Position numbers and translations under genes: made by a program
The notes under the pieces: generated by a model
Database searches by the model: none
The model's input: only the letters and a program-made list of their open reading frames with translations
What the model was told of the DNA's origin: nothing
Shown: positions 2,106-23,892 of the stretch, in pieces
Position numbering within the stretch: position 1 is the first letter of the stretch
Layout: each line of letters begins with the position of its first letter
NCBI GenBank assembly: GCA_965277805.1
Contig: OZ255842.1
Span: 5,440,001 to 5,504,000 of the forward strand
Reading direction: 5' to 3'
Length of the DNA: 64,000 nt
Origin: Candidatus Lustribacter sp.
GTDB taxonomy: Bacteria > Vulcanimicrobiota > Vulcanimicrobiia > Vulcanimicrobiales > Vulcanimicrobiaceae

Positions 2106-3557
2106 ATGCCGAAAAACCTGCGCACGTTCATGCGCGATGCCGTCGAGCGCTTTCCCGGTTCGATCAAAGTGATCGACGTGCCGGTCGAGCGGCGCTTCGG
2201 TATCACCGCGTATGCGGCGAAGCTCGCGCAGACCGGCGAGTACAAAGGTCTGCTCTTCAACAACGTGATCGGATCGCGGTTTCCGGTTGTGACCAACCTG
2301 ATGTCGAGCTACGACCGCATGGCGATGGCGATGAACTGCGGGATCGAAGAGCTGCCGCAAGTCTACGGCACCCGCGTGAAGAAACCGATCGCGCCGGTGA
2401 TCGTCGCGCGCGACGCCGCGCCGGTGAAAGACGTCGTGATGCGCGCCGACATCGACCTTGCGACCTTGCCGATCCCGGTGCACAACGCGCTCGACGGCGG
2501 GCCGTACCTCACCGCCGCCGCAACCGTCATGCGCGATCCCGAAACGGGCGCGCAGAACGTCGGCATCTACCGCCATCACGTGTTCAACAAGACCGAGATG
2601 GGCGTGTGGTTCTTCGGCAGCCATCACGGCAGCGACATCGTCGGGCGCTACGAGCGGCGGGGTGAGCGCACGCCGTTCGCGATCGCGATCGGCCACCATC
2701 CGGCGTTTTTGATGGGTGCGGCCGCGCGTTTGCCCGGCATCGGCGGCGAATACGATGCGGCCGGCGCGCTGCTCGGCGAGCCGGTCGAATTGGTCGAAGC
2801 CGAAACCTCCGATCTGATGGTGCCCGCGCAAGCGGAATTCATCATCGAAGGCTACATCGCGCCCGGGCAGCTCCGGCGCGAAGGGCCGTTCGGCGAGTGG
2901 CCCGGCCACTACCTGAACGAAGAAGACGTGCCGATCATGACCGTCACCGCGATCACGCACCGGCGCGATGCGATCTTTCAGGACATCATCGGCGCGGGCC
3001 GCGAGCATTTGCTCATGGGCGGCATTCCGCGTGCCGGCAGCATCTATCGCAGCGTGAAGGACGTCGTTCCCGACGTCGTCGCGGTCAACGTGCCGCCGCA
3101 TAGCCGGATGCACTGCTACGTATCGATCAAACGCCGGCACAACGTCGATGCGAAGCGCGCGGCGTTTGCGGCGCTGAATACCGAGCCCGAGAATTTGCGC
3201 GCCGTAATCGTCGTCGATGACGACATCAACGTCTACGACGACGGTGACGTGCTGTGGGCGGTGGGGACGCGTTTCGACGCCACGCGCGATCTCACGATCG
3301 TGCAGGGTTGGAGCGGGCCCGGCGGATTATTGCCGACCAACTGGGAGTACTTCGCTGACGGAACCAAGACGGCGCGGGCTTCGAGTGCGATCATCATCGA
3401 CGCTACGAAGCCGCCGCCACCGGTACCGTATCCCCCGCGCACGCAAGTTCCGGACGACGAAGTGAATCGTGTCGATCTCGGAACGATGAGCGATCTCACC
3501 GGGGCAAACCCATACCTGCGCGCCGCTGAGGAAGCGGCGCGCGTAGGTTTGGTTTAG
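2106..3557 (+). CDS. UbiD-family (prFMN-dependent) decarboxylase
   Basis: DGGPY, NVGIYR, EGPFGEW, VVDDDI and IIIDATKP motifs. Confidence 0.92.
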   Translation: MPKNLRTFMRDAVERFPGSIKVIDVPVERRFGITAYAAKLAQTGEYKGLLFNNVIGSRFPVVTNLMSSYDRMAMAMNCGIEELPQVYGTRVKKPIAPVIVARDAAPVKDVVMRADIDLATLPIPVHNALDGGPYLTAAATVMRDPETGAQNVGIYRHHVFNKTEMGVWFFGSHHGSDIVGRYERRGERTPFAIAIGHHPAFLMGAAARLPGIGGEYDAAGALLGEPVELVEAETSDLMVPAQAEFIIEGYIAPGQLRREGPFGEWPGHYLNEEDVPIMTVTAITHRRDAIFQDIIGAGREHLLMGGIPRAGSIYRSVKDVVPDVVAVNVPPHSRMHCYVSIKRRHNVDAKRAAFAALNTEPENLRAVIVVDDDINVYDDGDVLWAVGTRFDATRDLTIVQGWSGPGGLLPTNWEYFADGTKTARASSAIIIDATKPPPPVPYPPRTQVPDDEVNRVDLGTMSDLTGANPYLRAAEEAARVGLV

Positions 3558-3889
3558 GAGGCCTTTTTCTCGGCGGCAGCCGCGTCGGCGGCAGCCTTCT
3601 TGCCTTGCTCGATCAGGGCTTTGACCTTCTGGCCGCCCTTTTGGCCGATCTCTTCGTAAAAAGCCGGGCCGTAACGGTCGCGAGTGGCCTCGCCGCCTTT
3701 TTTGCCGCCTTTTTTACCGATGGCCTCGTAGAAAGCGTGGCCGTGAGCCTTTTTCGTAGCCTGACCACCCTTGCGGCCGATCATCTCGTAAAATTCGGGG
3801 CCATACTTTTTCTTGACGGTCTCGCCGCCTTTTTGACCGGCTTCGCGGACGCTCATGCCGGGTTTACGCTCTGGAGTGGGGGTGGACAT
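3554..3889 (-). CDS. KGG-repeat general stress protein (GsiB/Em-like hydrophilin)
   Basis: Repeated FYExIG(R/K/Q)KGG units and MSVREAGQKGG. Confidence 0.88.
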   Translation of the reverse strand: MSTPTPERKPGMSVREAGQKGGETVKKKYGPEFYEMIGRKGGQATKKAHGHAFYEAIGKKGGKKGGEATRDRYGPAFYEEIGQKGGQKVKALIEQGKKAAADAAAAEKKAS

Positions 3890-4061
3890 GACGGGAACCT
3901 CGTTCGTTTCTAGATTTGGACCTATCGGAAGTAACGTAAGCGGTCACTCGAAAGTTGTGCCCAGGGCCCTCAAGTTTGCAAAGCTTCCGCTTGACTTGGC
4001 TGGCGGGGCGCTTCGAGGGGTGGGCCGCTCGGCTACCCTTCGGTTGGATAGCCGTACGACT

Positions 4062-4085
4062 GTACCCAATTATCGGCTCTTGAAC
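4062..4085 (-). promoter_or_regulatory. Putative SigB/SigF-type promoter upstream of the KGG gene
   Basis: Minus strand reads GTTCAA-N12-GGGTAC, resembling the SigB consensus GTTTAA-N12-14-GGGTAT. Confidence 0.5.
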
Positions 4086-4130
4086 TACTGCTTTTCTATC
4101 CGCCTTACGGCAGATAGTCGCAGATCGAGC

Positions 4131-5234
4131 TCAATGACGGGCGAGCAGCGTCCAAATCCGCCGGCGGCCGGCGAACACGAGGGCTCCGGCGGCCAGCATG
4201 GCCCCCACGAGCGTGAGAAGCATGATGGGGGAGAACCCGCTGGCGAGCGCCGCGCCGCAGGTCCGCACCACCCCGCCGAAGAGCCGCAGGGCAAAGCGAG
4301 CCAGCGGATTGGCCGGCAGCGTGGCGATCGAGCGCGCCTCAGCCGCGACTTCGGCTGCGGTCCAATCGTTGCCGGCGAACGTATTCTCAAGGAAGCCGTC
4401 GCGAGCGATCAGGACCGCCTCGGTATGAAGGATGAGCCCGGGCCGCGGCCGGTCCACGTAGAGGCCCGACCGCTCGGCAAAGGCGGCGATCGAGGCCGGC
4501 GCACCCGTCGCCAAGGTCCAGCGGTCACCGTCGGCGCCCGCCGCCCGGCCGTAGGCGCGCAGGACGGCCGGCGTATCGTAGGCCGGGTCGAGGGTGATCT
4601 CGAGCAGCCGGACCGGGGTGTCGCGCAGCAGGGTCGCCATGCGCCCGAACTTCGCGGTCACGAGCGGGCACATCGACGGATCCGGACAGCGGGTGTAGAT
4701 GAACGATAGCACCGTCACGCCGTGCTGCAGATCCACGCCGGCGCCGTTCATGTCGACCAGCGGCGGTGCGGCGAGGGCATCGGTGCTGCGCGCGTCGGCA
4801 TTGAAGGCCGAGCCCGCAGTGCGGCCGCTGATCCGGAACGGCACGTCCACCTCGTTTTGATCGCCGGCGGTGTTACGCGCAATCACGTGCAGCGTGTAGG
4901 GCCGCACCATGAGCGCGGGCACGTCGATCACGTGGAAATGAAAGTGAAATCGGCCCGGCTGTGAGCGAGGGGCCGAAAAATCGAAGAGGTTGGTGCCGAT
5001 TTCGAGGCTCGCGGTATTGGTGGTGGTAACGACGTCGCCGTCCCAGTCCGTGCCGGCTCGCACGTCGAGACTCGAGAAACGCAGTGCCTGGATTGCGGGC
5101 CGCGCGGCCACGCTCGAGGGATGTGGAGCGGGCCAATTCTTGGGCGTGCCGGCCGCGACGAAGAGCGAGTTCGGCTTCGGCGGCAGGGCTTGAACGCATC
5201 CGGCGAGGACGACACTCGCAATGAGCGCGGTCAT
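4131..5234 (-). CDS. Lipoprotein with N-terminal beta-rich domain fused to an SCO1/SenC copper-chaperone domain and a C-terminal TM anchor
   Basis: Lipobox LAGC after ATG at 5234; FIYTRCPDPSMCP, ITLDPAYDTP, W..ATG and ILH motifs of Sco; hydrophobic C-terminus. Start uncertain. Confidence 0.8.
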   Translation of the reverse strand: MTALIASVVLAGCVQALPPKPNSLFVAAGTPKNWPAPHPSSVAARPAIQALRFSSLDVRAGTDWDGDVVTTTNTASLEIGTNLFDFSAPRSQPGRFHFHFHVIDVPALMVRPYTLHVIARNTAGDQNEVDVPFRISGRTAGSAFNADARSTDALAAPPLVDMNGAGVDLQHGVTVLSFIYTRCPDPSMCPLVTAKFGRMATLLRDTPVRLLEITLDPAYDTPAVLRAYGRAAGADGDRWTLATGAPASIAAFAERSGLYVDRPRPGLILHTEAVLIARDGFLENTFAGNDWTAAEVAAEARSIATLPANPLARFALRLFGGVVRTCGAALASGFSPIMLLTLVGAMLAAGALVFAGRRRIWTLLARH

Positions 5235-6366
5235 CAGCCGCCCGGAAGCACCGAGGACGGTTTCCCAGAATCGGGTCGGACCGGCACCGCCCAATGCGAC
5301 GGTCGACTTACTTGTCGGTGTCGTGGGCTTGTGGCTCGCAGCGGGATTTTTGCTGGACAGTTGGGCCCATCTCCACGTCCCCGTCGAAACGTTCTTCACC
5401 CCCTACCATGCAACGTTTTATAGTGCGATGGTCGCGGGCTCGATCATTGTGCTGGTCTTCGCGCGGCGGAATTTAGCCCTCGGATTCACCGGAATGAACG
5501 CGTTGCCTGCCGCGTACCAAACCGCCCTATGGGGCATTCCGATCTTTTTCCTGGGCGGCGTCGGCGATTTGATTTGGCACACGTTCTTCGGCGTCGAGGA
5601 TCGCGTCGAGGCGGTGACGAGTCCGACTCATCTGATCATCGGTCTCGGCGTGCTGCTGGTGGTCGGGGCGCCGATCCGTTCCGCGTTGGCACAGCGAACG
5701 ATGCTGGTCACGTTGCGTTCGCAGTTGCCGCTGCTGTTTGCGCTCGCGACGTGGCTCGAATTCATCCATCTGGGGACGGCTTACGCATTCGATCCCGGAG
5801 CGGCGCAGCTCTACGCGCCGCCCGACGGCGCCGCGTACAGTCCCGATTATTTCACCAACACGACTTTCGTCTTGTTCAAAACCGGTTCCGGAATCGCGAT
5901 CGTCATTTTGCAATCGCTGATCTTGATGGGCGTGTGCGTTTGGGCAGTGGCGCGTTTCCGTTTGCGTCCGGGTGCGCTGACGATCCTGTTCGTGCTGGCC
6001 AACGGCATGATCGCCGCCGCGCTGACCAACGACACAATGATCCTCGCGACGTACCTCGTGATGAGCGTCGCGGCCGGGGCTGCCGGCGATCTCATTATCG
6101 CGCGGCTGCATCCCTCGCGGTCGCGGCCCATCGCGTTCGGCTTGTTCGGAGCAGTTGTGCCCGGCGTCTATTATGGAACGTACTTTCTCTTCACGGCGCT
6201 GACCGGCGGCGTCTGGTGGAGTTGGACCCTCACGCTCGGTGCAATCGTCTGGGCGATGCTCTGCGGGCTGGCACTCACGCTACTTGCTGGCGGGCGTGAG
6301 GGGACCCCGGCGCTGCCCGTGCCCGAAGGTAACGCAGCCTTTACAACTCCTCCCGTCTCCTTGTAG
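5221..6366 (+). CDS. Polytopic membrane protein with two PmoC/AmoC-like D-x3-H...PxH metal-binding motifs
   Basis: About 10 hydrophobic segments; D46-x3-H50-x12-H63 (DSWAH...FTPYH) and D116-x3-H120...H137 (DLIWHTFF...SPTH). The gene itself is well supported; the function is inferred. Confidence 0.8.
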   Translation: MSAVISRPEAPRTVSQNRVGPAPPNATVDLLVGVVGLWLAAGFLLDSWAHLHVPVETFFTPYHATFYSAMVAGSIIVLVFARRNLALGFTGMNALPAAYQTALWGIPIFFLGGVGDLIWHTFFGVEDRVEAVTSPTHLIIGLGVLLVVGAPIRSALAQRTMLVTLRSQLPLLFALATWLEFIHLGTAYAFDPGAAQLYAPPDGAAYSPDYFTNTTFVLFKTGSGIAIVILQSLILMGVCVWAVARFRLRPGALTILFVLANGMIAAALTNDTMILATYLVMSVAAGAAGDLIIARLHPSRSRPIAFGLFGAVVPGVYYGTYFLFTALTGGVWWSWTLTLGAIVWAMLCGLALTLLAGGREGTPALPVPEGNAAFTTPPVSL

Positions 6367-6401
6367 GCCCCCATCGCCCGCACTCGAACGTGGGAGGGCG
6401 T

Positions 6402-6962
6402 ATGGCCTGGCGGGTGCTGGTCGCGGACGACGACCCTGAGATTTGCACGCTCATCAAAACGATCTTACGCAACGCGTCGTTCGAAGTCTCGGTTTGCCCT
6501 GACGCCGAAAGCGCGCTCGTTCATCTGCAGCGCGACAAGGCCTACGATATTCTGATCAGCGACTTCATGCTGCCGGGCATCTCGGGCATCGAGTTGATCA
6601 CGATGGTTCGCGCGAACCCGCAGACCGCGCGTTTGCCGATTTTGATGATCAGCGGTCACAGCAACTACGCCATGGACGCGCGCGCGAAGAGTGCCGGCGC
6701 CGATCATTTTCTCAACAAGCCGTTCACGCTCACGCAGTTGCGTTCGACCGTGACCGCGCTCGCATCGAAGTACCGTCCGTTGACGGAAGCGGAAGAAGCG
6801 AAGATCGCGGCCGGCAAAGCCCCCGGCGCCGCCCCGCCCGCTGCGCCGCAAGCGCAAGCGCCGACACGGGTCGTCGGTACTCCCGGCCGGCCCGACACGA
6901 TCAAGGTGACGTCGACTGCGCCGCTCACCGATGCGAAGAACAGCGGATCCGACTCGCACTGA
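6402..6962 (+). CDS. Response regulator receiver (CheY-like) with a Pro/Ala-rich C-terminal tail
   Basis: VLVADDD, ISDFMLPGISG, MISG and KPF motifs; ATG at 6402 preceded by GGAGG. Confidence 0.9.
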   Translation: MAWRVLVADDDPEICTLIKTILRNASFEVSVCPDAESALVHLQRDKAYDILISDFMLPGISGIELITMVRANPQTARLPILMISGHSNYAMDARAKSAGADHFLNKPFTLTQLRSTVTALASKYRPLTEAEEAKIAAGKAPGAAPPAAPQAQAPTRVVGTPGRPDTIKVTSTAPLTDAKNSGSDSH

Positions 6963-6984
6963 TCGCTAGACGGCGCGGTATCGC

Positions 6985-7554
6985 ATGACCGCCGCCGCAC
7001 TCTTTAAAGTCGTGCTGGTGGCGATGTCGCTCGGGCTCGACGTTTTCGCCGTGTCGATCGGCGTCGGCATGCGCGGTTTGCCGCGCGGCGTGAAGTTCCG
7101 CATCGGCGCGGCGTTTGCGGCGGCCGAAGTTTCGATGACCGTCATCGGCGCCGGCATCGGGCAGGTCGCGGGCGCGTTGCTCGGCGACATCGCGGGCTAT
7201 ATCGGCTTTGCCGCCCTGATCGGCGTCGGCATCTACATGGTGATCGAATCGCTGCGCGAGAGCGAGGCGGGTGGATTCGATCTCTCACGCGGCTGGGGCT
7301 TGCTCTTGGGGGCGGTCTCGATCAGCCTCGACTCGCTCGGCATCGGCTTCTCGATCCTTTTCATCGGGGTCCCGCTCGCCGTTTCGCTCGTTTGTATCGC
7401 CGTCGTGGCGGTGACCTCCACGACCCTGGGCCTCACCCTCGGCCGGGCGCTCGGCGCGCGCGCGGAAGCGGCGGCTGCGACGTGGGGCGGCGTCATCCTC
7501 ATCGCGACCGGCGTCGCGTTTGCGGCGCTGAAGTTGTTCTCCGCCAAACTGTAG
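6985..7554 (+). CDS. mntP: Manganese efflux pump MntP family
   Basis: Duplicated SLGLDVFAV / SISLDSLGIG motifs and six TM segments. Confidence 0.85.
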   Translation: MTAAALFKVVLVAMSLGLDVFAVSIGVGMRGLPRGVKFRIGAAFAAAEVSMTVIGAGIGQVAGALLGDIAGYIGFAALIGVGIYMVIESLRESEAGGFDLSRGWGLLLGAVSISLDSLGIGFSILFIGVPLAVSLVCIAVVAVTSTTLGLTLGRALGARAEAAAATWGGVILIATGVAFAALKLFSAKL

Positions 7555-7565
7555 AAGCGGCTCGC

Positions 7566-8537
7566 GTGCTCACGTTCGTGGTCCGGCGCATTTTGCAGAG
7601 CATTCCGCTGCTGTTGCTGATCTCGATGATCCTGTTCGGCATCATAAGTGAGGCCCCGGGCGGTCCGCTCACGCCGTACTTGCAGAATCCGCACATCACC
7701 GAAGCCGATATCATCCGGCTCAAGCACAACTTGGGCTTGGACCAGCCGGTGCCGATCCAGTACTTGCACTGGCTCGGGCAAGTGCTGCACGGCGACTTCG
7801 GTTACTCGATGTCCAACTCGGAACCCACCATCACGGCCGTCACCGAGCGCATTCCGATCTCGCTGCAGCTGATGGGCAGCGCGATCGGCGTCGCGCTGAT
7901 CCTGGGAGTCATCTTCGGCATCATTTCGGCCGTGAAGCAGTACACGTGGGTCGATTTTCTCATCACGACGCTCGCGTTTTTCGGCCAAGCGATGCCGGTG
8001 TTTTGGTTTGCGCTCATCCTGCAGCTGGTGTTTTCCGTCCAAGGGTTCACCGGTTTCGGATGGCATGTGGCGCTGCCGTCGGCGGGCATCAGTTCGAGCG
8101 ATACCTTCGATCTCGGCGACCGCATCCAGCACCTGATCTTGCCCGTCATCGTGCTGTCGCTGGCGTATCTCGCGCTCTTCAGCCGCTTCATGCGCTCGTC
8201 GATGCTCGAGGTCATTCATTCGGATTACGTGCGCACGGCATCGGCAAAAGGCCTGACTCGATTCGCCGTCATCATGCGGCACGCGTTCCGCAACGCCCTC
8301 ATTCCGATCGTCACGATTGCGGCCCTCACGGTGCCCGATCTCGTGGGCGGGGCGGTCATCACGGAGAAAATCTTCGCCATTCCCGGCATGGGCAATCTGT
8401 TCATCAACGCGCTCGGGCAGTTCGACTTCGCCGTTCTGATGGCGTTCATGTGCCTCACGGCCGTGTTCGTCGTGCTCGCGAACTTGCTCGCCGACGTGTG
8501 CTACGCGTGGCTCGATCCGCGGGTGAAGTACAGCTAG
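7566..8537 (+). CDS. Peptide/nickel ABC transporter permease (OppB/DppB-like)
   Basis: GLDQP..QY, GDFGYS, RSSMLEV..SDYVRTA.AKGL, HAFRNALIP; GTG start at 7566. Confidence 0.92.
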   Translation: MLTFVVRRILQSIPLLLLISMILFGIISEAPGGPLTPYLQNPHITEADIIRLKHNLGLDQPVPIQYLHWLGQVLHGDFGYSMSNSEPTITAVTERIPISLQLMGSAIGVALILGVIFGIISAVKQYTWVDFLITTLAFFGQAMPVFWFALILQLVFSVQGFTGFGWHVALPSAGISSSDTFDLGDRIQHLILPVIVLSLAYLALFSRFMRSSMLEVIHSDYVRTASAKGLTRFAVIMRHAFRNALIPIVTIAALTVPDLVGGAVITEKIFAIPGMGNLFINALGQFDFAVLMAFMCLTAVFVVLANLLADVCYAWLDPRVKYS

Positions 8538-15582: not shown

Positions 15583-18500
15583 ATGTGGTTGACCCGGTTT
15601 TCTATCCAGCGGCCGATCATCGTGGCTATGCTGTTCATCGCTCTGGCGGTCTACGGCATCTTTTCGTTTTTCCAGATCGGGCGCAGCCTCAACCCCAACG
15701 TGACGTTCCCGATCGTGGTGGTGTCGGCGACGTATCCGGGCGCCTCGCCGGCCGAGATGGAACGGCTGGTCATCAAGCCGATCGAAGATCAGATCGACGG
15801 CATCGACAATCTCGACCAGATGTCGGCGACGGCGGAAGAAGGCCTGGCCGCCGTCATCGTGCAGTTCAAGCTCGACACGAACCTCGATTACGCCGCGATT
15901 GACGTGCAGCGCCGCGTCGATACCGCGCGTGTCTACATGCCGACCGATCTCGATCCGCCGCTGGTCGACAAGAGCCAGGGTTCGTCGCAATCGCCGATCC
16001 TTACATTGGCGCTCAGTTCGCGTTCGATGTCGGCGACGGCGCTCTCGGATCTCGTCGCAAACCGCATCGTGTCGGACATCCGGCACGTGCCCAACGTTCA
16101 GAGCGTGGACGTCAGCGGCGAGAGCAAACGTGAATTTCACGTGCTGCCCGATCCGCTGCGGTTGATGGGCACGGGCGCCACGATCGCCGATATCTATCAG
16201 GCGATCAACGCGAATAACGCGAACGTGCCGGGCGGACGGCTCGAAGATTCCAATGCCGAGACCGACGTCTCGATTCATTCCGACGTCGTGCGCGCGAGCG
16301 ATATGCTTGCGATCCCGCTCAATATCCCGGCCGCACTCCTCGCTTCCGGTTTCTCGCCGTCAGCGGCGAACGGGCTGCGCGTGGGCGACGTAGCGACGAC
16401 GGACGACGGCTACGTCGAGCAGCGCATCATCTCGAAGTTCGACGGTGCGCCCACCATCGTCCTCAACGTCAACCGCATCATCACCGCCGATGAGATCAAC
16501 TCGACCAAGGTGCTGCGCGATCAGCTCAAGACGATCGAAGCGCGCTACCCGACGGTCCACTTCGAAGAAGTTGGTGCGCCGGCGGACTACACGCAGAAGT
16601 CGCTCGACGGCGTGCTCCAGAGTTTGGTCGAGGGCATCGTGCTGACCGCGGTCGTGCTGATGCTCTTCCTGCACGCCTGGCGCAACGCGCTGGTCGTCAT
16701 GATCGCGATCCCGGTTTCGCTGCTCACCACGTTCATCGTGATGAAGCAGATGCACTTCACGCTCGACATCGTCTCGCTGATGGGCGTGTCGCTGATCATC
16801 GGCATCTTGGTCGACGACTCCATCGTGGTGCTGGAGAACATCACCCGGCATCGAGACCTCGGGCAAACGCCGTTCGACGCGGCAATTACCGGCCGGGGCG
16901 AAATCGGCGGTGCGGCAGTGGCCATCACGCTCGTCGACGTCGTCGTCTTTCTGCCGATCGCGTTTCTCTCGGGTATCGTCGGCAAGTATATGGTTGAGTT
17001 CGGCGTCGTCGTCGTCGTTGCGACCCTAGTGTCGCTGCTCGTTTCATTCACGCTCACGCCGATGCTGGCCGCGCGCTGGTCAGTCGTCAAACGCAGCGCC
17101 GCTCCGCCGAAGTCGCTAGAGTGGTTTCAGAACGCGTTCGATCGCTTTAACGCTTGGTATCGCGACCGCGCGCTGCCGTATGCGCTCCTGCATCGCTGGC
17201 AGACCGTCGGCGTCTGCGTCGCGCTGCTCGTCAGCGCGCTCGCGCTGCCGGCCCTCGGGCTCGTGTCTTCGGAATTCATACCGAATTCGCAAACGGGATC
17301 GATCGAGACGACCTTGACCTATCGGGCCGGGACGCCGATTACCCAAACGTCGGCCGCGGTCGATCGTCTGGCGAACGGCATCATGCAACTGCAGTACGTG
17401 CACGCCACGCTGAGCACCGTCGGCGTGAAGCCGGCCGGCTACGGTGAGACGACCGGCGGCTACGTGGCGAAGATGACGGTCGAACTCGACAAGAATCACC
17501 GCAACGCGACGAACGATGTGATCAAGAAGATCCGCACGCTCGGCTCGCTGGTTCCCGGCGGCATCCTCACCGTTGCGGGCGAGGGTAATTCCGAGCCGAT
17601 CTTTTACACGCTCTCCGGCCCCGAGGACCAGCTTCAGGCCGGCGCCGACAAGCTCGCGGCTCTGATTCGCTCGATCCCGGGCACCGTCGACGTGCACACC
17701 GGCACCGAGAGCGAGACCAATCGGCTCGACATCAACATCGACCGTGCGAAGTGCGCGCTGCTCGGGGTGAATCCGGGCACGGCGGCGACTGCGGCCCGCA
17801 TCGCGATCGGCGGCGCCGTGGCGACGCGCGTTCGCACCGAGACGGGCCTGGTCGACGTGCGCGTTCAATTGCCGGCCGCCTACCGCAACCGGCTCGCCGA
17901 CGTGCAAAAGATCCAGGTTCGCGCAAACGACGGCGTCAGTCTCTACCGCTTAAGCGATCTCGCCTCGTTCAGCTTCGCGCCGGCGCCCACAAAGATCGAA
18001 CGCCTCGACAAGCAGCGCATCGTCCGCGTGAGCGGCGGCTTCGACGCCGGCGCGACGACGCTCGGCGCCGTGACGCAAAAGATCGACGCCGCCGTCAAGG
18101 CGCCCGATTTCTTTCCCGAAGGCGTCGCGTTGCGGGCTGACGGCGACAGCCAGTTCTTCGCCGAGACCTTCAGCAGCATGGGCCTCGCGATGCTGACGTC
18201 GTTCGCGCTCGTGTACGTGCTGATGGTGATCCTCTACAGTTCGTTCCTGACGCCGTTCGTGATTATGTTCTCGGTGCCGCTGGCGCTCGTGGGCGCGCTC
18301 TACGGTCTCGCGCTGACGCATCAAACGCTGAACCTGTTCTCGATGATCGGCATCATTATGCTCTTCGGCCTCGTCGCGAAGAACGGCATCCTGCTCGTCG
18401 ACTACGCCAACACCCAGCGCCACCGCGGGCTGCGCGTGCTCGAGGCGATGCGCACGGCGGCGGGCATTCGCTTGCGTCCGATCGTGATGACGACCGCATC

Positions 18501-18744
18501 GATGGTGTTCGGTATGTTGCCCCTCTCGCTCGGTTTGGCCGAGGGCGCCGAGTTCCGTCAGTCGATGGGCACGGTATTGATCGGCGGCTTGCTCAGCTCG
18601 CTCATTCTTACGCTGTTCCTCGTACCGGTCGTGTACGCGTGGGTAGCGGGCGGGATCGAGAAGCGCGCAGACAAACGCGCGCTTGCTGCCGAGCATCGCG
18701 CCGGTGAGGAGCGCCTACTCGTGCCGCACACGAGTGGTGATTAA
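15583..18744 (+). CDS. RND efflux transporter permease (AcrB/AcrD/AcrF family)
   Basis: 1053 aa; YPGASP.E.E, GILVDDSIVV, KNGILLVD and RLRPIVMT motifs. Confidence 0.95.
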   Translation: MWLTRFSIQRPIIVAMLFIALAVYGIFSFFQIGRSLNPNVTFPIVVVSATYPGASPAEMERLVIKPIEDQIDGIDNLDQMSATAEEGLAAVIVQFKLDTNLDYAAIDVQRRVDTARVYMPTDLDPPLVDKSQGSSQSPILTLALSSRSMSATALSDLVANRIVSDIRHVPNVQSVDVSGESKREFHVLPDPLRLMGTGATIADIYQAINANNANVPGGRLEDSNAETDVSIHSDVVRASDMLAIPLNIPAALLASGFSPSAANGLRVGDVATTDDGYVEQRIISKFDGAPTIVLNVNRIITADEINSTKVLRDQLKTIEARYPTVHFEEVGAPADYTQKSLDGVLQSLVEGIVLTAVVLMLFLHAWRNALVVMIAIPVSLLTTFIVMKQMHFTLDIVSLMGVSLIIGILVDDSIVVLENITRHRDLGQTPFDAAITGRGEIGGAAVAITLVDVVVFLPIAFLSGIVGKYMVEFGVVVVVATLVSLLVSFTLTPMLAARWSVVKRSAAPPKSLEWFQNAFDRFNAWYRDRALPYALLHRWQTVGVCVALLVSALALPALGLVSSEFIPNSQTGSIETTLTYRAGTPITQTSAAVDRLANGIMQLQYVHATLSTVGVKPAGYGETTGGYVAKMTVELDKNHRNATNDVIKKIRTLGSLVPGGILTVAGEGNSEPIFYTLSGPEDQLQAGADKLAALIRSIPGTVDVHTGTESETNRLDINIDRAKCALLGVNPGTAATAARIAIGGAVATRVRTETGLVDVRVQLPAAYRNRLADVQKIQVRANDGVSLYRLSDLASFSFAPAPTKIERLDKQRIVRVSGGFDAGATTLGAVTQKIDAAVKAPDFFPEGVALRADGDSQFFAETFSSMGLAMLTSFALVYVLMVILYSSFLTPFVIMFSVPLALVGALYGLALTHQTLNLFSMIGIIMLFGLVAKNGILLVDYANTQRHRGLRVLEAMRTAAGIRLRPIVMTTASMVFGMLPLSLGLAEGAEFRQSMGTVLIGGLLSSLILTLFLVPVVYAWVAGGIEKRADKRALAAEHRAGEERLLVPHTSGD

Positions 18745-18847: not shown

Positions 18848-19999
18848 GTGTTCTACCTTACCGAGTCCGCGCGAGCGGTGGCTGCGGCTGCCGGAGCGAT
18901 CGCCCTCTGCACGAGCATCGCGCTCGCGCAGAGCGACGTCTCCGTAACCCTCAACGGTTCACCGCTCAACCTTAGTCCCGCACCGCAGGAACGGGCCGGG
19001 CGGGTCTTCGTTCCGTTACGCGGTGTGTTCGAGCAACTCGGCGCCTCCGTCGTCTATCAAGACGGCACGATCAATGCGCAAGGCCGCGGCAACCGCTCGG
19101 TCAGCTTGCACATTGGTTCCACCCAGGCAATGGTCAACGGACAACCGCAGACGATGGACGTCGCACCATTCATCATCGGCGCGAGCACCTACGTTCCGCT
19201 GCGCTTCGTTTCGCAAGCGCTGGGCGCGAGCGTAAATTACGACGCGAGCAACCGGATCGTGGCACTGGCCAATGGCGGCCCGCAACAAGGTCCGCCGCAG
19301 GGCGCACCGCCGCCGCAAGCGATGCAGCCCCCGCCGCCGCAGGCGATGCAGCCCCCGCCGCCGCCGCAGCACAGCACCGTGGCTCTCGCCGCCGTTTTTC
19401 CGGGCCGCGGTGAATCCGTTCCCGCACGCCGTCCCACGATCGAGGCCAACTTCAACGAGCCGCGCGCGAACCCGAACTCGATCCGCATCGACATCGACGG
19501 GCTGAACGTCACCGACCAGTCGTCACGTTCGCCGCGCGGCGTCGTCTTCTCGCCGCCATCGGATCTGCAATCGGGCCCGCATCAGGTCCGCGTTTCCGGC
19601 ACCGACATGACGGGGGCGCCCTTCGAGGGCCGCTGGACGTTCAACTCGGGCACGAGCACCGTCGTGAACTCGATCACCGACGTACACCCGGGTGCCGACG
19701 CGAATGTGAAGGGTCAGTTCACGGTCTCGGGCCACACGCTGCCGGGCGCGCGCGTCGTCGTGCAAGTCGCGACGGTCAATCGCCCGTCGCCTGCCAACGT
19801 CCTCGGGCAACTCCTCGGTACCGGCACCGCCAGCGACAACGTGCGCAGTGAAGTGATCGCCGACGGTAACGGCAACTTTGCTGCCCCGATCACGATCCAA
19901 GCGCATCCCGGCCAGCCCATCACGCTCGTCGTCGATTCAACCGACGCGCAAACCAAATCGGCTGCTCCCCGCATCGTCCGTAACTTGACGGTCGAGTAG
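18848..19999 (+). CDS. Secreted copper-amine-oxidase N-terminal (stalk) domain protein with Ig-like C-terminal domains
   Basis: Signal peptide; GRVFVPLRGVFEQLGASV and TYVPLRFVSQALGA; Pro/Gln linker with a PPPPQAMQ tandem repeat. Confidence 0.85.
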   Translation: MFYLTESARAVAAAAGAIALCTSIALAQSDVSVTLNGSPLNLSPAPQERAGRVFVPLRGVFEQLGASVVYQDGTINAQGRGNRSVSLHIGSTQAMVNGQPQTMDVAPFIIGASTYVPLRFVSQALGASVNYDASNRIVALANGGPQQGPPQGAPPPQAMQPPPPQAMQPPPPPQHSTVALAAVFPGRGESVPARRPTIEANFNEPRANPNSIRIDIDGLNVTDQSSRSPRGVVFSPPSDLQSGPHQVRVSGTDMTGAPFEGRWTFNSGTSTVVNSITDVHPGADANVKGQFTVSGHTLPGARVVVQVATVNRPSPANVLGQLLGTGTASDNVRSEVIADGNGNFAAPITIQAHPGQPITLVVDSTDAQTKSAAPRIVRNLTVE

Positions 20000-20024: not shown

Positions 20025-20840
20025 TTGCCATACTTTACATCATACGCCCGCGCGCTGGGCGGGGCCATCGCGGCGTTCGCGCTGTGCAGCAGCATCGCAC
20101 TTGCGCAAAGCGACGTCTCGGTGACGCTCAACGGCGCGCCGCTCAATCTCAATCCCCCGCCGCAAGAACGTGCCGGACGCGTCTTCGTACCGCTGCGCGG
20201 CGTGTTCGAGCAACTCGGCGCATCAGTCGTGTACGATAACGGCACGATCAACGCGCAGAAGGGCCGCGAACGCTCGGTCAGCCTCCACGTCGGCTCGACG
20301 GCAGCAACGGTCGACGGTCAACCGCAAACGCTGGACGTCGCACCGTTCATCATCGGCGCCAGCACATACGTTCCGTTGCGCTTTGTCTCGCAAGCGCTCG
20401 GCGCGACCGTGAATTACGATGCGACCAATCGCGTCGTTGCGCTCGGCGAAGGCGGCCGGCCGATGGGCGGCCCGCCGATGGGAGGCCCGCCGCCGCGTTC
20501 GGAGCCGCCGCAAGCATTGCAGCCCCCGCCGCCCGATCACACCTCGCTCATCCTAAGCGCCGTGCGTCCGGGTCGTAATGAAGTCGTCGCCGCGCGCCGT
20601 CCGACGATCGAAGCCGACTTCGCCGACGGCCGCGTAAACCCGGACTCGCTGCGCATCACGCTCGACGGCGTGAACGTTACCGGTCAGTCGACGCGTTCGC
20701 CGCGCGGCATTGTCTACTCGCCGCCGTCCGATCTGCAGACCGGCCGGCATGAAGTCCACGTCAACGGAACCGACACCAACGGCACGCCGTTCGACGCGAA
20801 CTGGAGCTTTACGTCCGGCCGTACGGTCGGCGACCGCTAG
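20025..20840 (+). CDS. Shorter tandem paralog of the stalk-domain protein
   Basis: Near-identical stalk domain and first Ig-like domain; lacks the last domain; TTG start after GGAGG. Confidence 0.85.
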   Translation: MPYFTSYARALGGAIAAFALCSSIALAQSDVSVTLNGAPLNLNPPPQERAGRVFVPLRGVFEQLGASVVYDNGTINAQKGRERSVSLHVGSTAATVDGQPQTLDVAPFIIGASTYVPLRFVSQALGATVNYDATNRVVALGEGGRPMGGPPMGGPPPRSEPPQALQPPPPDHTSLILSAVRPGRNEVVAARRPTIEADFADGRVNPDSLRITLDGVNVTGQSTRSPRGIVYSPPSDLQTGRHEVHVNGTDTNGTPFDANWSFTSGRTVGDR

Positions 20841-21566: not shown

Positions 21567-22322
21567 GTGCGGCGCTTGTCCTCTCGCGTAGCACTAGTGA
21601 CCGGTGCAGCGTCCGGTCTCGGCGCGGGCGTCGCTCGCGCGCTGGCAGCGGCGGGCTATCGGATTGCATTTACTTTTCGTCCGGACGGCACGCCGCCGGA
21701 TGAGACTTCCAGAGCGATTGCCGAATACGATCCCGATGTGCTGGCCATCGCAAACGATCTCGGCAGCTTCGAGGCCGGCGCGGAATTGGTCGCTGCGGTG
21801 GAAACGCAACGCGGTCCGCTCGACATCGTCGTGCACTGCGTCGGACCGATCGTCGTGCGCTCGTTCGCGGCGTCGTCCGTCGCCGCCGACTACCGCGCAA
21901 TGATCGACGGCAACTTCGGTTCGGCCGTGTCGATCGCGGCGGCGGCGTTGCCGGGGATGCGCGCGCGGATGTTCGGCCGCCTCGTGTTCTTCGGCATGAA
22001 CGGCTCGCACGTGACGCAACCTGCGAAGCTGATGGCGCTCTACGGTGCGGCCAAGGCAGCCGTCGTCGCGTTCGCCCGCACGCTGGCGCTCGAAGAAGCG
22101 AAGAACGGGATCACCGTCAACGTGATCGAGCCCGGCGACATTCGCAACAAGACGGCCACGCGCGCGGAATCGCGCGCGATCGTGGCCGGTAATCCGACCG
22201 GTCACGCCGGCAGCTGGGAAGACGTCGCGGATGCGGTCTGTTTTGCCGTCGCCGACGAGGCCGGGTTTCTCAATGGCATGGTGCTGGGCGTAAACGGCGG
22301 CCTCGCGGATCCGCATGAGTAG
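21567..22322 (+). CDS. SDR-family oxidoreductase (FabG-like)
   Basis: TGAASGLG, YGAAK and GITVNVIEPG motifs. Confidence 0.9.
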   Translation: MRRLSSRVALVTGAASGLGAGVARALAAAGYRIAFTFRPDGTPPDETSRAIAEYDPDVLAIANDLGSFEAGAELVAAVETQRGPLDIVVHCVGPIVVRSFAASSVAADYRAMIDGNFGSAVSIAAAALPGMRARMFGRLVFFGMNGSHVTQPAKLMALYGAAKAAVVAFARTLALEEAKNGITVNVIEPGDIRNKTATRAESRAIVAGNPTGHAGSWEDVADAVCFAVADEAGFLNGMVLGVNGGLADPHE

Positions 22323-23892
22323 CGCGGTCGAATCCGCGCCGCGGGCGCACGTGCGCACCTGGGATCGCCTCGGCATCATCGCGTGGTCGATCGTCGCGAT
22401 CGTCACCGGAATGCGCGCCGCGGCGGCCTTCAGCGTGCCGATCACGGGCGACGAAGCCTATTACTGGGAGTGGTCGCGCCATCTCGCGCTCGGCTACAGC
22501 GATCATCCGCCCGGCGTTGCCTATACGATCTTCGCGTTCAGCTGGCTCGGGACGAACCCGTTCGCGGTGCGGATCGGCTTCATCGTTTGCGGCGTGATCG
22601 CGACGATCTTCGCCGCCAAGACCGCCACGCGGCTGGCGGGCGGCAATCCGCGCGCGGGCGTCGTCACCGCGCTCGCGATCACGTTGACGCCGTTGACGTC
22701 GGTCGCCTTCGGGTCGGCGTCGCCCGACGGTCCGTATCTGGCGGCGTGGGCCGCGACCTTGTATTGCGCCGTGCGCGCGTTCGGCTCGCACCTGCGGCGC
22801 GACTATATCTGGCTCGGGATTGCGCTCGGCGCCGTGCTGCTGACGCGCGCGCTCGCGGTGGCAATGGTCTTCGGCATCGTGATGTACGCGCTTACGCCGC
22901 GCCGGCGCCAGTACTGGCGCGAAGGTCTCTGGCTCTCGCTGCTCGTGGCGGGCGTGATGTGCGTGCCGTTCCTCGTGTGGAACTCCACTCACGGCTGGGC
23001 GACGATCGCGTTTGCGCTGGTGAGCCGGCACGCGCAGGCCTGGAAGTGGGACCGCCCGCTCGCGCTCTTCGCCGTGCAAACTGCCGCGTACTCGCCGGGC
23101 TTGTGGTTCGGTGCGCTACTGAGCATTTTCTACGTGCGCAACGCTTTCCTCAATTGGACGGCGGTACCGCTGTTCGTGTTGCTCACGCTGGTCGACTTTC
23201 ACGAACCGGTCGAGATCCATTGGGTGTTCGGCGCGTACCTCTCGCTCTGCGTCGCGCTCGGGATCGTATTCGTGCGGCTCGGCGCGCGTGCGCGCGTGAT
23301 CTGGGCCAGCATCGCGGCCGTGCCGGCGCTCATTCTCTTCCCGCTGATCTTCGTAGCCGCAATCGAACCGGGTTTCGTCTACAGCCAGTTCCTCCGCACG
23401 GGTTCGACGTTGCGCAACACCGGCGGCTTCGAAATCTTCACGGTGCCGTCGCTCGCGATCGACGTGCGCAACATCATGGAAGCGAATGACGCGACCGTCG
23501 TCACCGACGGTTACGGACTTTCATCGGCACTGGATTTCTACGGCGGCGTTCCGCCGGTGCTGATCGGCTACAATGCGGAAGGTCAGGAGGCGCTGCGGTG
23601 GTACGACGCCGACGCGCAGCCGCACCGCATCCTGTTCGTCGATAAGGAAGCGTTGTATCCGCGAGCCGGTCACCCCGAAGACAGAGGGCGGCCGGAGTTC
23701 GTGAAACAACTCGGACGGGCATGTACGCGCATCACGGCGGGGCCAACTCTCGGCTATGAGTTTCACGATTCGTCGGGACACACGGTGCCCGCGCGGCTGT
23801 ACTTCACGACGTGGTGCGAAGGACCGCGCCCGCATGCGTTGCGCATCTTGCAGTGGGACCCGCGTTACTCGCCGCCCGCCGGCCAATCGTAG
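22315..23892 (+). CDS. GT-C glycosyltransferase (ArnT/PMT, family 39-like)
   Basis: GDEAYYWEWSRHL...Y.DHPP motif; multiple TM segments; extracytoplasmic C-terminal domain. Confidence 0.88.
   Translation: MSSAVESAPRAHVRTWDRLGIIAWSIVAIVTGMRAAAAFSVPITGDEAYYWEWSRHLALGYSDHPPGVAYTIFAFSWLGTNPFAVRIGFIVCGVIATIFAAKTATRLAGGNPRAGVVTALAITLTPLTSVAFGSASPDGPYLAAWAATLYCAVRAFGSHLRRDYIWLGIALGAVLLTRALAVAMVFGIVMYALTPRRRQYWREGLWLSLLVAGVMCVPFLVWNSTHGWATIAFALVSRHAQAWKWDRPLALFAVQTAAYSPGLWFGALLSIFYVRNAFLNWTAVPLFVLLTLVDFHEPVEIHWVFGAYLSLCVALGIVFVRLGARARVIWASIAAVPALILFPLIFVAAIEPGFVYSQFLRTGSTLRNTGGFEIFTVPSLAIDVRNIMEANDATVVTDGYGLSSALDFYGGVPPVLIGYNAEGQEALRWYDADAQPHRILFVDKEALYPRAGHPEDRGRPEFVKQLGRACTRITAGPTLGYEFHDSSGHTVPARLYFTTWCEGPRPHALRILQWDPRYSPPAGQS

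Follow-up and report, generated by a model that had tools for sequence, protein, structure and literature searches.

The locus described here raises the question of whether a lone membrane protein can carry the metal-ligand pattern of a copper monooxygenase subunit in a genome where no monooxygenase of that type is found. It lies in a 64,000-nucleotide stretch of the Candidatus Lustribacter sp. genome (contig OZ255842.1, positions 5,440,001 to 5,504,000; hereafter the window), in which positions 5221..6366 of the forward strand encode a 381-residue, ten-helix membrane protein (P0001, hereafter the target). The original prediction, made from the letters alone, took this protein for a distant relative of PmoC/AmoC, the C subunit of the copper membrane monooxygenases (CuMMOs), acting alone or with a fused extra membrane domain as a copper enzyme, sensor or transporter. 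Our analysis partly supports that interpretation. The two Asp/His/His motifs on which it was built are real and far from chance. The explanation we favor, that the target is a stand-alone membrane enzyme with a PmoC-type site for a metal, probably copper, stands in our judgment an equal chance of being right or wrong. The locus matters because the same ligand pattern is kept by a large, unnamed single-gene family in organisms that oxidize neither methane nor ammonia.

Two Asp/His/His motifs in a conserved four-helix bundle

The target gene was defined by its open reading frame (ORF) and translation, by its homologues and by an AlphaFold2 (AF2) model. The GC content at third codon positions equals 0.76 in the target frame versus 0.49 and 0.61 in the overlapping frames, within a window that is GC-rich as a whole (0.60-0.70). 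The AF2 model, based on 39 homologues, has a mean predicted local distance difference test score (pLDDT) of 79.7 and a predicted template modelling score (pTM) of 0.79. It places helices 1 to 4 at residues 26-52, 61-86, 102-123 and 135-157, and helices 5 to 10 at residues 165-187, 208-245, 252-268, 274-296, 303-327 and 335-356. These limits agree with the original prediction, which had put both motifs at the ends of transmembrane helices with about six further helices behind them.

Motif 1 (5356..5409, forward strand) reads D46-SWA-H50-LHVPVETFFTPY-H63, i.e. D46-x3-H50-x12-H63, and with its further positions takes the form D46-x3-H50-x-H52-x3-E56-x-FFTP-x-H63. Motif 2 (5566..5631, forward strand) reads D116-LIW-H120-TFFGVEDRVEAVTSPT-H137, i.e. 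D116-x3-H120-x16-H137, or more fully D116-x2-W-H120-x5-E126-x8-P135-x-H137. A count on the translation confirmed the six predicted residues as well as the 70 residues that separate D46 from D116. Judging from the AF2 helix limits, in both motifs D-x3-H closes a helix and P-x-H starts the next one. The two halves of the bundle also resemble each other (hhalign probability of 30.6% for the motif 1 half against the motif 2 half), which suggests an internal duplication.

Conservation was measured across 146 non-redundant N-terminal domains sharing less than 62% identity. D116, P135 and H137 are present in all 146, H120 in 145 and E126 in 144, while D46, H50 and H63 are each kept in 143. The position of E56 is occupied by Glu or Asp in 143 domains, and that of H52 by His in 104. 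The four histidines whose conservation among homologues had been left to be checked are thus nearly invariant. We also combined both motifs into a single pattern, D-x3-H-x(8-18)-P-x-H-x(35-75)-[DN]-x3-H-x(8-18)-P-x-H. Only one of the 26,611 six-frame ORFs of at least 100 residues in the target's own genome contains it, namely the target gene; elsewhere, 260 of 277 family members and 57 of 64 PmoC/AmoC proteins have it, as against none of 1,464 other ORFs of pmo loci. These counts are descriptive and do not amount to a test, since the pattern was composed after both families had been seen.

Both motifs belong to an N-terminal four-helix transmembrane bundle (the N-domain; residues ~22-160; 5284..5700, forward strand), which was delimited by its fold when predicted alone (pLDDT 91.3, pTM 0.83), by conservation and by Foldseek. 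Of the 34 positions kept in at least 85% of 104 non-redundant full-length members, 26 fall within the first 160 residues, and for this reason we regard the bundle as the functional core. The less conserved six-helix domain that follows (the C-domain; residues ~163-358; 5707..6294, forward strand) contributes only P170, G251, G286, D290, P314, W333, G340 and G349. Its helices show a weak likeness to the S-components of ECF transporters (5edl_A, PanT 6zg3_H, FolT 4z7f_A and RibU 5kbw_A).

The orientation of the bundle could be deduced from charge distribution and from longer relatives of the target. Lys and Arg residues average 2.74 per sequence in loop 2-3 and 2.00 in loop 4-5 versus 0.25 and 0.59 in the two motif loops, both of which are acidic. 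In 22 long forms, 91-330 extra residues are inserted between residues ~162-209 and 213-227, in the loop between helices 5 and 6 (5782..5847, forward strand). PD40 repeats were found there in 13 of 13 long forms scanned and a PDZ domain in P0140, the domain scan having left out eight of the 22. In bacteria, PD40 and PDZ domains are typically extracytoplasmic. Because of the charge distribution and these insertions, both motifs are placed on the outer face: helix 5 would run outward, so that the ends of helices 1 and 3 and the starts of helices 2 and 4 would all lie on the outer side. Both motifs would thereby sit at the outer membrane face of the four-helix bundle.

This arrangement bears on an explanation that dispenses with such a metal site altogether, in which the histidines ligate haem in a bundle resembling b-type cytochromes, or the Asp-His pairs serve a proton relay or the structure of the protein. 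The histidines of cytochrome b bundles are buried more deeply and occur in both leaflets, whereas all six ligand residues of the target sit where helices end on a single face, and an Asp precedes each first His by one turn. We consider a haem, proton-relay or structural role very improbable.

The family defined by these motifs is large and carries no name. A word-indexed search returned 184 homologues, every one annotated as 'hypothetical protein', and the few with a named source came from metagenome-assembled genomes (MAGs) of Eremiobacteraeota, Baltobacteraceae or Candidatus Acidoferrum. Against 1.84 billion cluster representatives, the target profile matched 2,327 clusters at E<=0.001, 1,498 at E<=1e-10 and 636 at E<=1e-30, with clusters counted at 50% identity. 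Neither Pfam nor NCBIfam contains a match for the target protein, and no Pfam match recurs among 39 family members scanned, even at E<=10. In the literature, judged by titles and abstracts without supplementary files, the family appears undescribed; the papers retrieved dealt with true orphan pmoC/amoC copies or were unrelated. Members were detected in 30 of 41 related genomes, in 21 of the 201 genomes sampled from the phylum to which a Saccharopolyspora record belongs (Actinomycetota) and in a Chloroflexi MAG. The Actinomycetota count includes two unpublished genomes, G118 and G196, which enter no other result and without which it becomes 19 of 199. The family is mostly represented by a single gene, in contexts that vary, and no fused form longer than 745 residues was found, which is weak evidence.

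Two family members depart from the general picture. P0090 (355 residues, 56% identity) has no equivalents of D46, H50, H52, H63, H120 and E126 and retains P135 and H137; it resembles a degraded paralogue, perhaps without activity, or a gene in decay. In another genome of the window's genus (G007:C3:1640040-1641069), the target gene is split into two abutting pieces that match profile positions 2-146 and 144-344, with one TGA inside the second, which suggests a frameshift or a broken copy.

Comparison with PmoC and AmoC

Reference proteins were collected by scanning species genomes with the published pmoA primer A189f and by searching five of the genomes with primer matches for the Pfam AmoC family (PF04896). 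Four of the five were positive and yielded nine PmoC/AmoC proteins. All nine share an invariant D-x3-H-x12-H (EQDGTWH...DFTPSH) and an invariant N-x3-H-x13-H (NEWGHTFWFMEE..APLH), 71 residues apart; with their variants, the strings read EQD(G/A/N)(T/S)WH...(F)T(P/A)(S/N)H and NEWGH(T/A)FWF(M/R)EE..(A)P(L/I)H. The PmoC motifs and spacing that the original prediction had cited were seen in real sequences, and its ligand numbers match those in an excerpt of PMC12576850, where CuC of the Bath strain is assigned to Asp156/His160/His173 and CuD to Asn227/His231/His245. According to an excerpt of PMC11725843, CuD lies ~5.7 Å from CuC, and the pocket housing both is the active site of the particulate methane monooxygenase (pMMO).

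The target shares with these proteins a [D/N]-x3-H that ends one helix and a P-x-H that starts the next, two such units 70-71 residues apart over four consecutive helices, the strings FTPxH, WHT(F) and PxH, an acidic residue after the second His and, as far as topology can be deduced, sites that face outward. Motif 1 reproduces the CuC ligand set, Asp-x3-His-x12-His, across two adjacent helices. In architecture, however, the two differ. PmoC has ~100 residues ahead of its first motif, whereas the target lacks its two N-terminal helices, so that its very first helix (26-52) already belongs to the bundle, and instead carries six extra helices on the C-terminal side.

Profile comparison with hhalign places the two bundles in register. 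A first run with shallow alignments had given a probability of only 0.09%, and the alignments were therefore rebuilt deeper and limited to domains. The N-domain (146 rows) then aligned over 60 columns with a PmoC core (37 rows) composed of 37 PmoC, AmoC and hydrocarbon monooxygenase sequences trimmed to the four motif helices (P 0.0014, probability 17.8%). In this register D46 corresponds to the CuC Asp, H50 to the first His and TP-H63 to TPSH, and V55 lies opposite Arg165 of PmoC; HMMER places motif 1 in the same register. Permissive realignment extended the match to 130 columns with one 3-residue gap, setting D116, H120, E126, P135 and H137 opposite N, H, E, P and H of CuD, although this extension carries no confidence. 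The N-domain against full-length PmoC gave P 0.0009 and a probability of 23%, and the first halves alone gave P 0.0002 and 47%. The real score of 25.7 compares with a mean of 15.8 (standard deviation 3.5) for block shuffles and was reached by one of 150; reversed-profile controls scored 19.4-21.0. Other controls were weaker: P 0.016 for the N-domain against PmoA, 0.09 for the N-domain against the C-domain, and 0.05-0.08 for the C-domain against PmoC. We also considered whether the C-domain is PmoA-like and rejected this, the hhalign match covering only 12 columns (P 0.0044).

Searches with single hidden Markov models (HMMs) gave a fainter signal. The N-domain HMM reached at most 14.8 bits on 64 PmoC sequences, 14 of which scored at least 10.4 bits, compared with maxima of 6.2 bits on reversed PmoC, 5.9 on 113 PmoA candidates, 7.3 on 399 neighbor proteins and 7.5 on 1,464 other ORFs. 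The similarity to PmoC, as far as HMMER measures it, should be read as lying at the edge of noise.

Structure and language-model comparisons point in the same direction. Among the matches listed by Foldseek for the N-domain model, PmoC (7s4l_C) ranked first both in TM-score (0.52) and in probability (0.82), with an E value of 0.63; the pMMO entry 9cl2_Ba had a TM-score of 0.49 and the ammonia monooxygenase (AMO) entry 9pxf_G one of 0.40. When residues 20-165 were compared with named clusters of the ESM Atlas, the family's own fragment cluster ranked first (0.92), followed by two AmoC clusters in which PF04896 is found on 14% and 71% of members; these scored 0.88, sharing 197 and 194 of 256 features, and scores under 0.9 count as leads only.

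Several results weigh against a PmoC-type site of common descent. Formally, the target is not a member of PF04896: the family gave no match at E<=1 for the target and none at E<=10 for any of 39 family members. No match to PDB sequences was found for the target, either as a single protein or with profiles at E<=10. Besides the low probability of the first hhalign run, the second motif halves show no profile similarity (P 0.11), and motif 2 differs from CuD in having Asp for Asn and a spacing of x16 versus x13, three residues longer. The PmoC HMM scored 1.3 bits on the target itself and placed only 7 of 276 family members above the best decoy from the target's genome (7.7 bits among 26,611 ORFs), while the N-domain HMM gave an unrelated LivM-like permease of that genome 12.4 bits by chance, the next decoy reaching 8.1. 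The four-helix fold is a generic bundle. With the whole target model, Foldseek found nothing at E<=0.001 and PmoC was not among the matches listed; PmoC was likewise missing from the best 50 matches of each of the VIA-align comparisons (whole model and N-domain) and of the VIA search of the PDB (N-domain). Those matches consisted of generic helical bundles, cytochrome oxidase subunit III and ECF S-components. Subunit III and the CyoC C-terminal bundle share 5-12% identity with the target over aligned residues, a match that stems from a widespread arrangement and does not surpass that to designed bundles; no metal site is known in subunit III. Finally, sites composed of Asp, His and Glu would fit zinc hydrolases as well.

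Taken together, four independent and individually weak methods point, if weakly, to PmoC/AmoC, and none to another named family. The distant relationship claimed originally is supported insofar as PmoC/AmoC is the nearest named family by three independent weak methods, hhalign, Foldseek and the language model, but it falls short of statistical certainty: a Pfam AmoC match is lacking, the hhalign probabilities of 18-47% concern the first half only, and the HMMER scores stay near noise. Motif 2, a candidate counterpart of the CuD set, follows its pattern with Asp for Asn and a longer loop, and the half-profile comparison is not significant. We regard true homology of the target bundle with the PmoC bundle as a toss-up, and grade higher the claim that both proteins carry the same kind of site.

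The remaining CuMMO genes appear to be absent. The whole genome, a single contig of 5.53 Mb estimated to be 95% complete, contains no match to PF04896, PF02461 (AMO) or PF04744; the positive control succeeded in 4 of 5 genomes for PF04896 and in 3 of 3 for PF02461, while PF04744 had none. The lack of pmoA and pmoB noted earlier in the window therefore extends to the genome, where PmoC/AmoC itself is also without a match. PmoC is encoded together with PmoA and PmoB, whereas the target genome has no matches to either, and the description of the target as stand-alone, with an extra membrane domain fused behind the bundle, stands. Elsewhere, one Chloroflexi MAG (G049; loci L067 and L177/L178) encodes both a PmoC homologue of the hydrocarbon monooxygenase type, located through its pmoA primer match, and a member of the target family; hence the two families can coexist in one genome.

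Gene neighborhood and the possible function of the site

The mechanism we favor can be outlined as follows. The outer ends of an up-down four-helix bundle would hold D46/H50/H63 with E56 and D116/H120/H137 with E126, and these sets, as their sequence suggests, would bind either a single metal ion or a pair, copper being the likeliest, level with the outer leaflet. Metal binding, the identity of the metal and catalysis are all predicted properties. The bundle may be a very distant relative of that of PmoC or a convergent copy, two origins that we consider evenly balanced. Least certain are the roles of the remaining parts: the six C-terminal helices might form a scaffold or substrate pocket, filling the role that PmoA and PmoB have in the monooxygenase, and the protein might by itself catalyze a reaction whose substrate is lipophilic or part of the cell envelope. 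The PD40 propeller or PDZ domain of relatives would sit in the outer loop beside the site.

A more specific form of this proposal makes the target a single-polypeptide sister or precursor of the active-site subunit of CuMMOs. Its PmoC-type CuC/CuD centre, joined to a six-helix domain of its own, would use copper and O2 to oxidize a membrane or envelope substrate and would need neither PmoA nor PmoB; such proteins would be widely distributed among Eremiobacterota, Actinomycetota and Chloroflexota of soil. We assign this form of the proposal a low probability. If it were true, the family would show the contested active site of pMMO in minimal form and shed light on CuMMO origin. If the relationship is real in the broader sense, the target would be a simpler protein for studying the PmoC-type metal centre, and its family a candidate for the lineage from which the CuMMO C subunit descended or for a sister to it; pMMO itself is described as fragile and hard to express in an excerpt of PMC11725843. 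If the likeness is convergent, the family would still represent a new and widespread group of putative outer-face metal-site membrane proteins (2,327 clusters without a Pfam model) that deserves a name and a function.

The closest neighbor of the target is a divergently transcribed gene (4131..5399, reverse strand) that encodes a lipoprotein domain with lipobox LAGC, a SCO1/SenC domain (SCO1-SenC, PF02630, E 1.9e-11, residues 223-315) and a C-terminal anchor helix. Its ORF overlaps the 5' end of the target, and the true start probably lies further in. The lipoprotein domain, ~125 residues long (4827..5204, reverse strand), is a conserved unit by its domain profile and belongs to no Pfam family. 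Among 14 loci from the two closest families, the window included, 13 have it beside the target, although this count is not a statistic because the genomes are kin; target identity among these loci goes down to ~35%. The one locus without it (L168) has a TlpA-like thioredoxin-TPR protein beside the target. No copy was detected in the 20 loci obtained through the Actinomycetota search and from the Chloroflexi MAG. Complex prediction for the target and the lipoprotein domain returned a score of 0.00 versus a mark of 0.32, which has no bearing on binding either way. Other genera encode the domain as a separate protein (138-209 residues), and the window's copy has a His-rich string, HFHFH, that is not conserved in the others.

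The SCO1/SenC domain of the neighbor shows the Cys pair of that family (CPDPSMC) and a later His. It differs from typical SCO1/SenC in its place between the lipoprotein domain and the anchor helix and in the five residues between its cysteines, the pair being typically CxxxC. In this genus, the SCO1 domain fused to the lipoprotein partner could supply copper to the target. As a general partner of the family, SCO1 was rejected, because the part conserved beside the target is the lipoprotein domain only and SCO1 is restricted to the window's genus.

Downstream, 23 bases past the target stop, lies a stand-alone response-regulator receiver gene (6390..6962, forward strand; PF00072, E 2.4e-25), followed by a gene for MntP-type manganese efflux (6985..7554, forward strand; PF02659, E 4e-25). 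This surrounding bears on an explanation in which the target handles metal without catalysis: its outer-face site would take up copper or another ion and pass it inward or to a chaperone, or signal its presence, so that the protein would serve as an importer, a metallochaperone platform or a sensor. The position of the gene between the SCO1-domain lipoprotein and the receiver and MntP genes would fit such a role in this genus, as would the conservation of D29, R153 and D290 in or near the membrane, a histidine kinase gene directly downstream in the Chloroflexi locus L228, and a weak C-terminal HisKA_3 match in P0170 (E 0.00092, under the cut-off). However, the receiver gene follows the target within one genus only (loci L157 and L158), no fused kinase was seen in 24 members scanned apart from the weak match of P0170, and a transport site would not readily account for PD40 or PDZ insertions next to it. 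MntP had no match among the called genes of 20 related loci, a weak point since the gene caller drops real genes. On balance, a role in metal handling alone seems to us rather improbable.

In other lineages, the neighboring genes belong more often to the cell envelope. A PMT_2 (GT-C) glycosyltransferase gene lies directly 3' of the target in five genera, a GT2 gene adjoins it in four class-level relatives, and an M15 gene adjoins one further family member (L173). Actinomycetota loci have solute-binding or ABC genes in four cases and assorted neighbors otherwise, including YkuD, M23, PAP2 and two beta-lactamase-family genes. Altogether, the context gives soft hints of copper and thiol redox chemistry in few genomes and of cell-envelope functions in others. 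Parts of it add to the points against a copper enzyme listed above: the lipobox Cys is the only His, Cys or Met residue that is conserved in the lipoprotein domain, the SCO1 part is confined to one genus, and the Actinomycetota neighborhoods show no copper or oxygenase signal.

These envelope genes bear on a convergent hydrolase, in which a mono- or dinuclear outer-face centre of zinc or another metal would cleave or remodel an envelope molecule such as a peptide, a lipoprotein or a lipid-linked glycan, and which would be unrelated to monooxygenases in both descent and mechanism. Metallohydrolases use Glu as a general base, and a near-invariant acidic residue follows each motif's first His (E56 and E126, with the counts given above). 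PD40 and PDZ domains, common in bacterial peptidases, are those found inserted in the scanned long forms, and the sequence similarity to PmoC lies near noise. Against this, no peptidase or hydrolase family in Pfam or NCBIfam matches the target, the neighbor associations may be no more than kinship of the genomes and chance would produce, and a hydrolase leaves unexplained why AmoC is the nearest named family by language model and by Foldseek TM-score. We regard a hydrolase as unlikely, though worth keeping in view, and retain the stand-alone, probably copper-dependent enzyme as our leading explanation of the target.

Further features of the locus and the window

Some family members hint at other associations. 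P0214 (589 residues) has an N-terminal 4HBT_2 thioesterase domain (E 3.6e-23) fused ahead of the membrane protein, and genes for acyl-CoA synthetase, acyl-CoA dehydrogenase and enoyl-CoA hydratase adjoin the lipoprotein gene in several Eremiobacterota loci. Both observations hint faintly at a connection with acyl or lipid metabolism.

Scans of positions 4000-7700 revealed no terminator above shuffled sequences and two promoter-like sites versus 0.5 expected, neither of them well placed. Near the target locus, a reverse-strand gene (3554-3889) encodes a 111-residue LEA_5-like stress protein with KGG repeats (PF10685, E 1.1e-13), which occurs with 100% identity in two loci of the same genus. The window also has a PMT_2 (GT-C) gene of its own (22315-23889, forward strand), 16 kb from the target. 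Two tandem forward-strand genes (18848-19996 and 20025-20837), directly after a gene for an AcrB-type RND pump (15583-18741), each encode a domain resembling the N-terminal domain of copper amine oxidases (PF07833).

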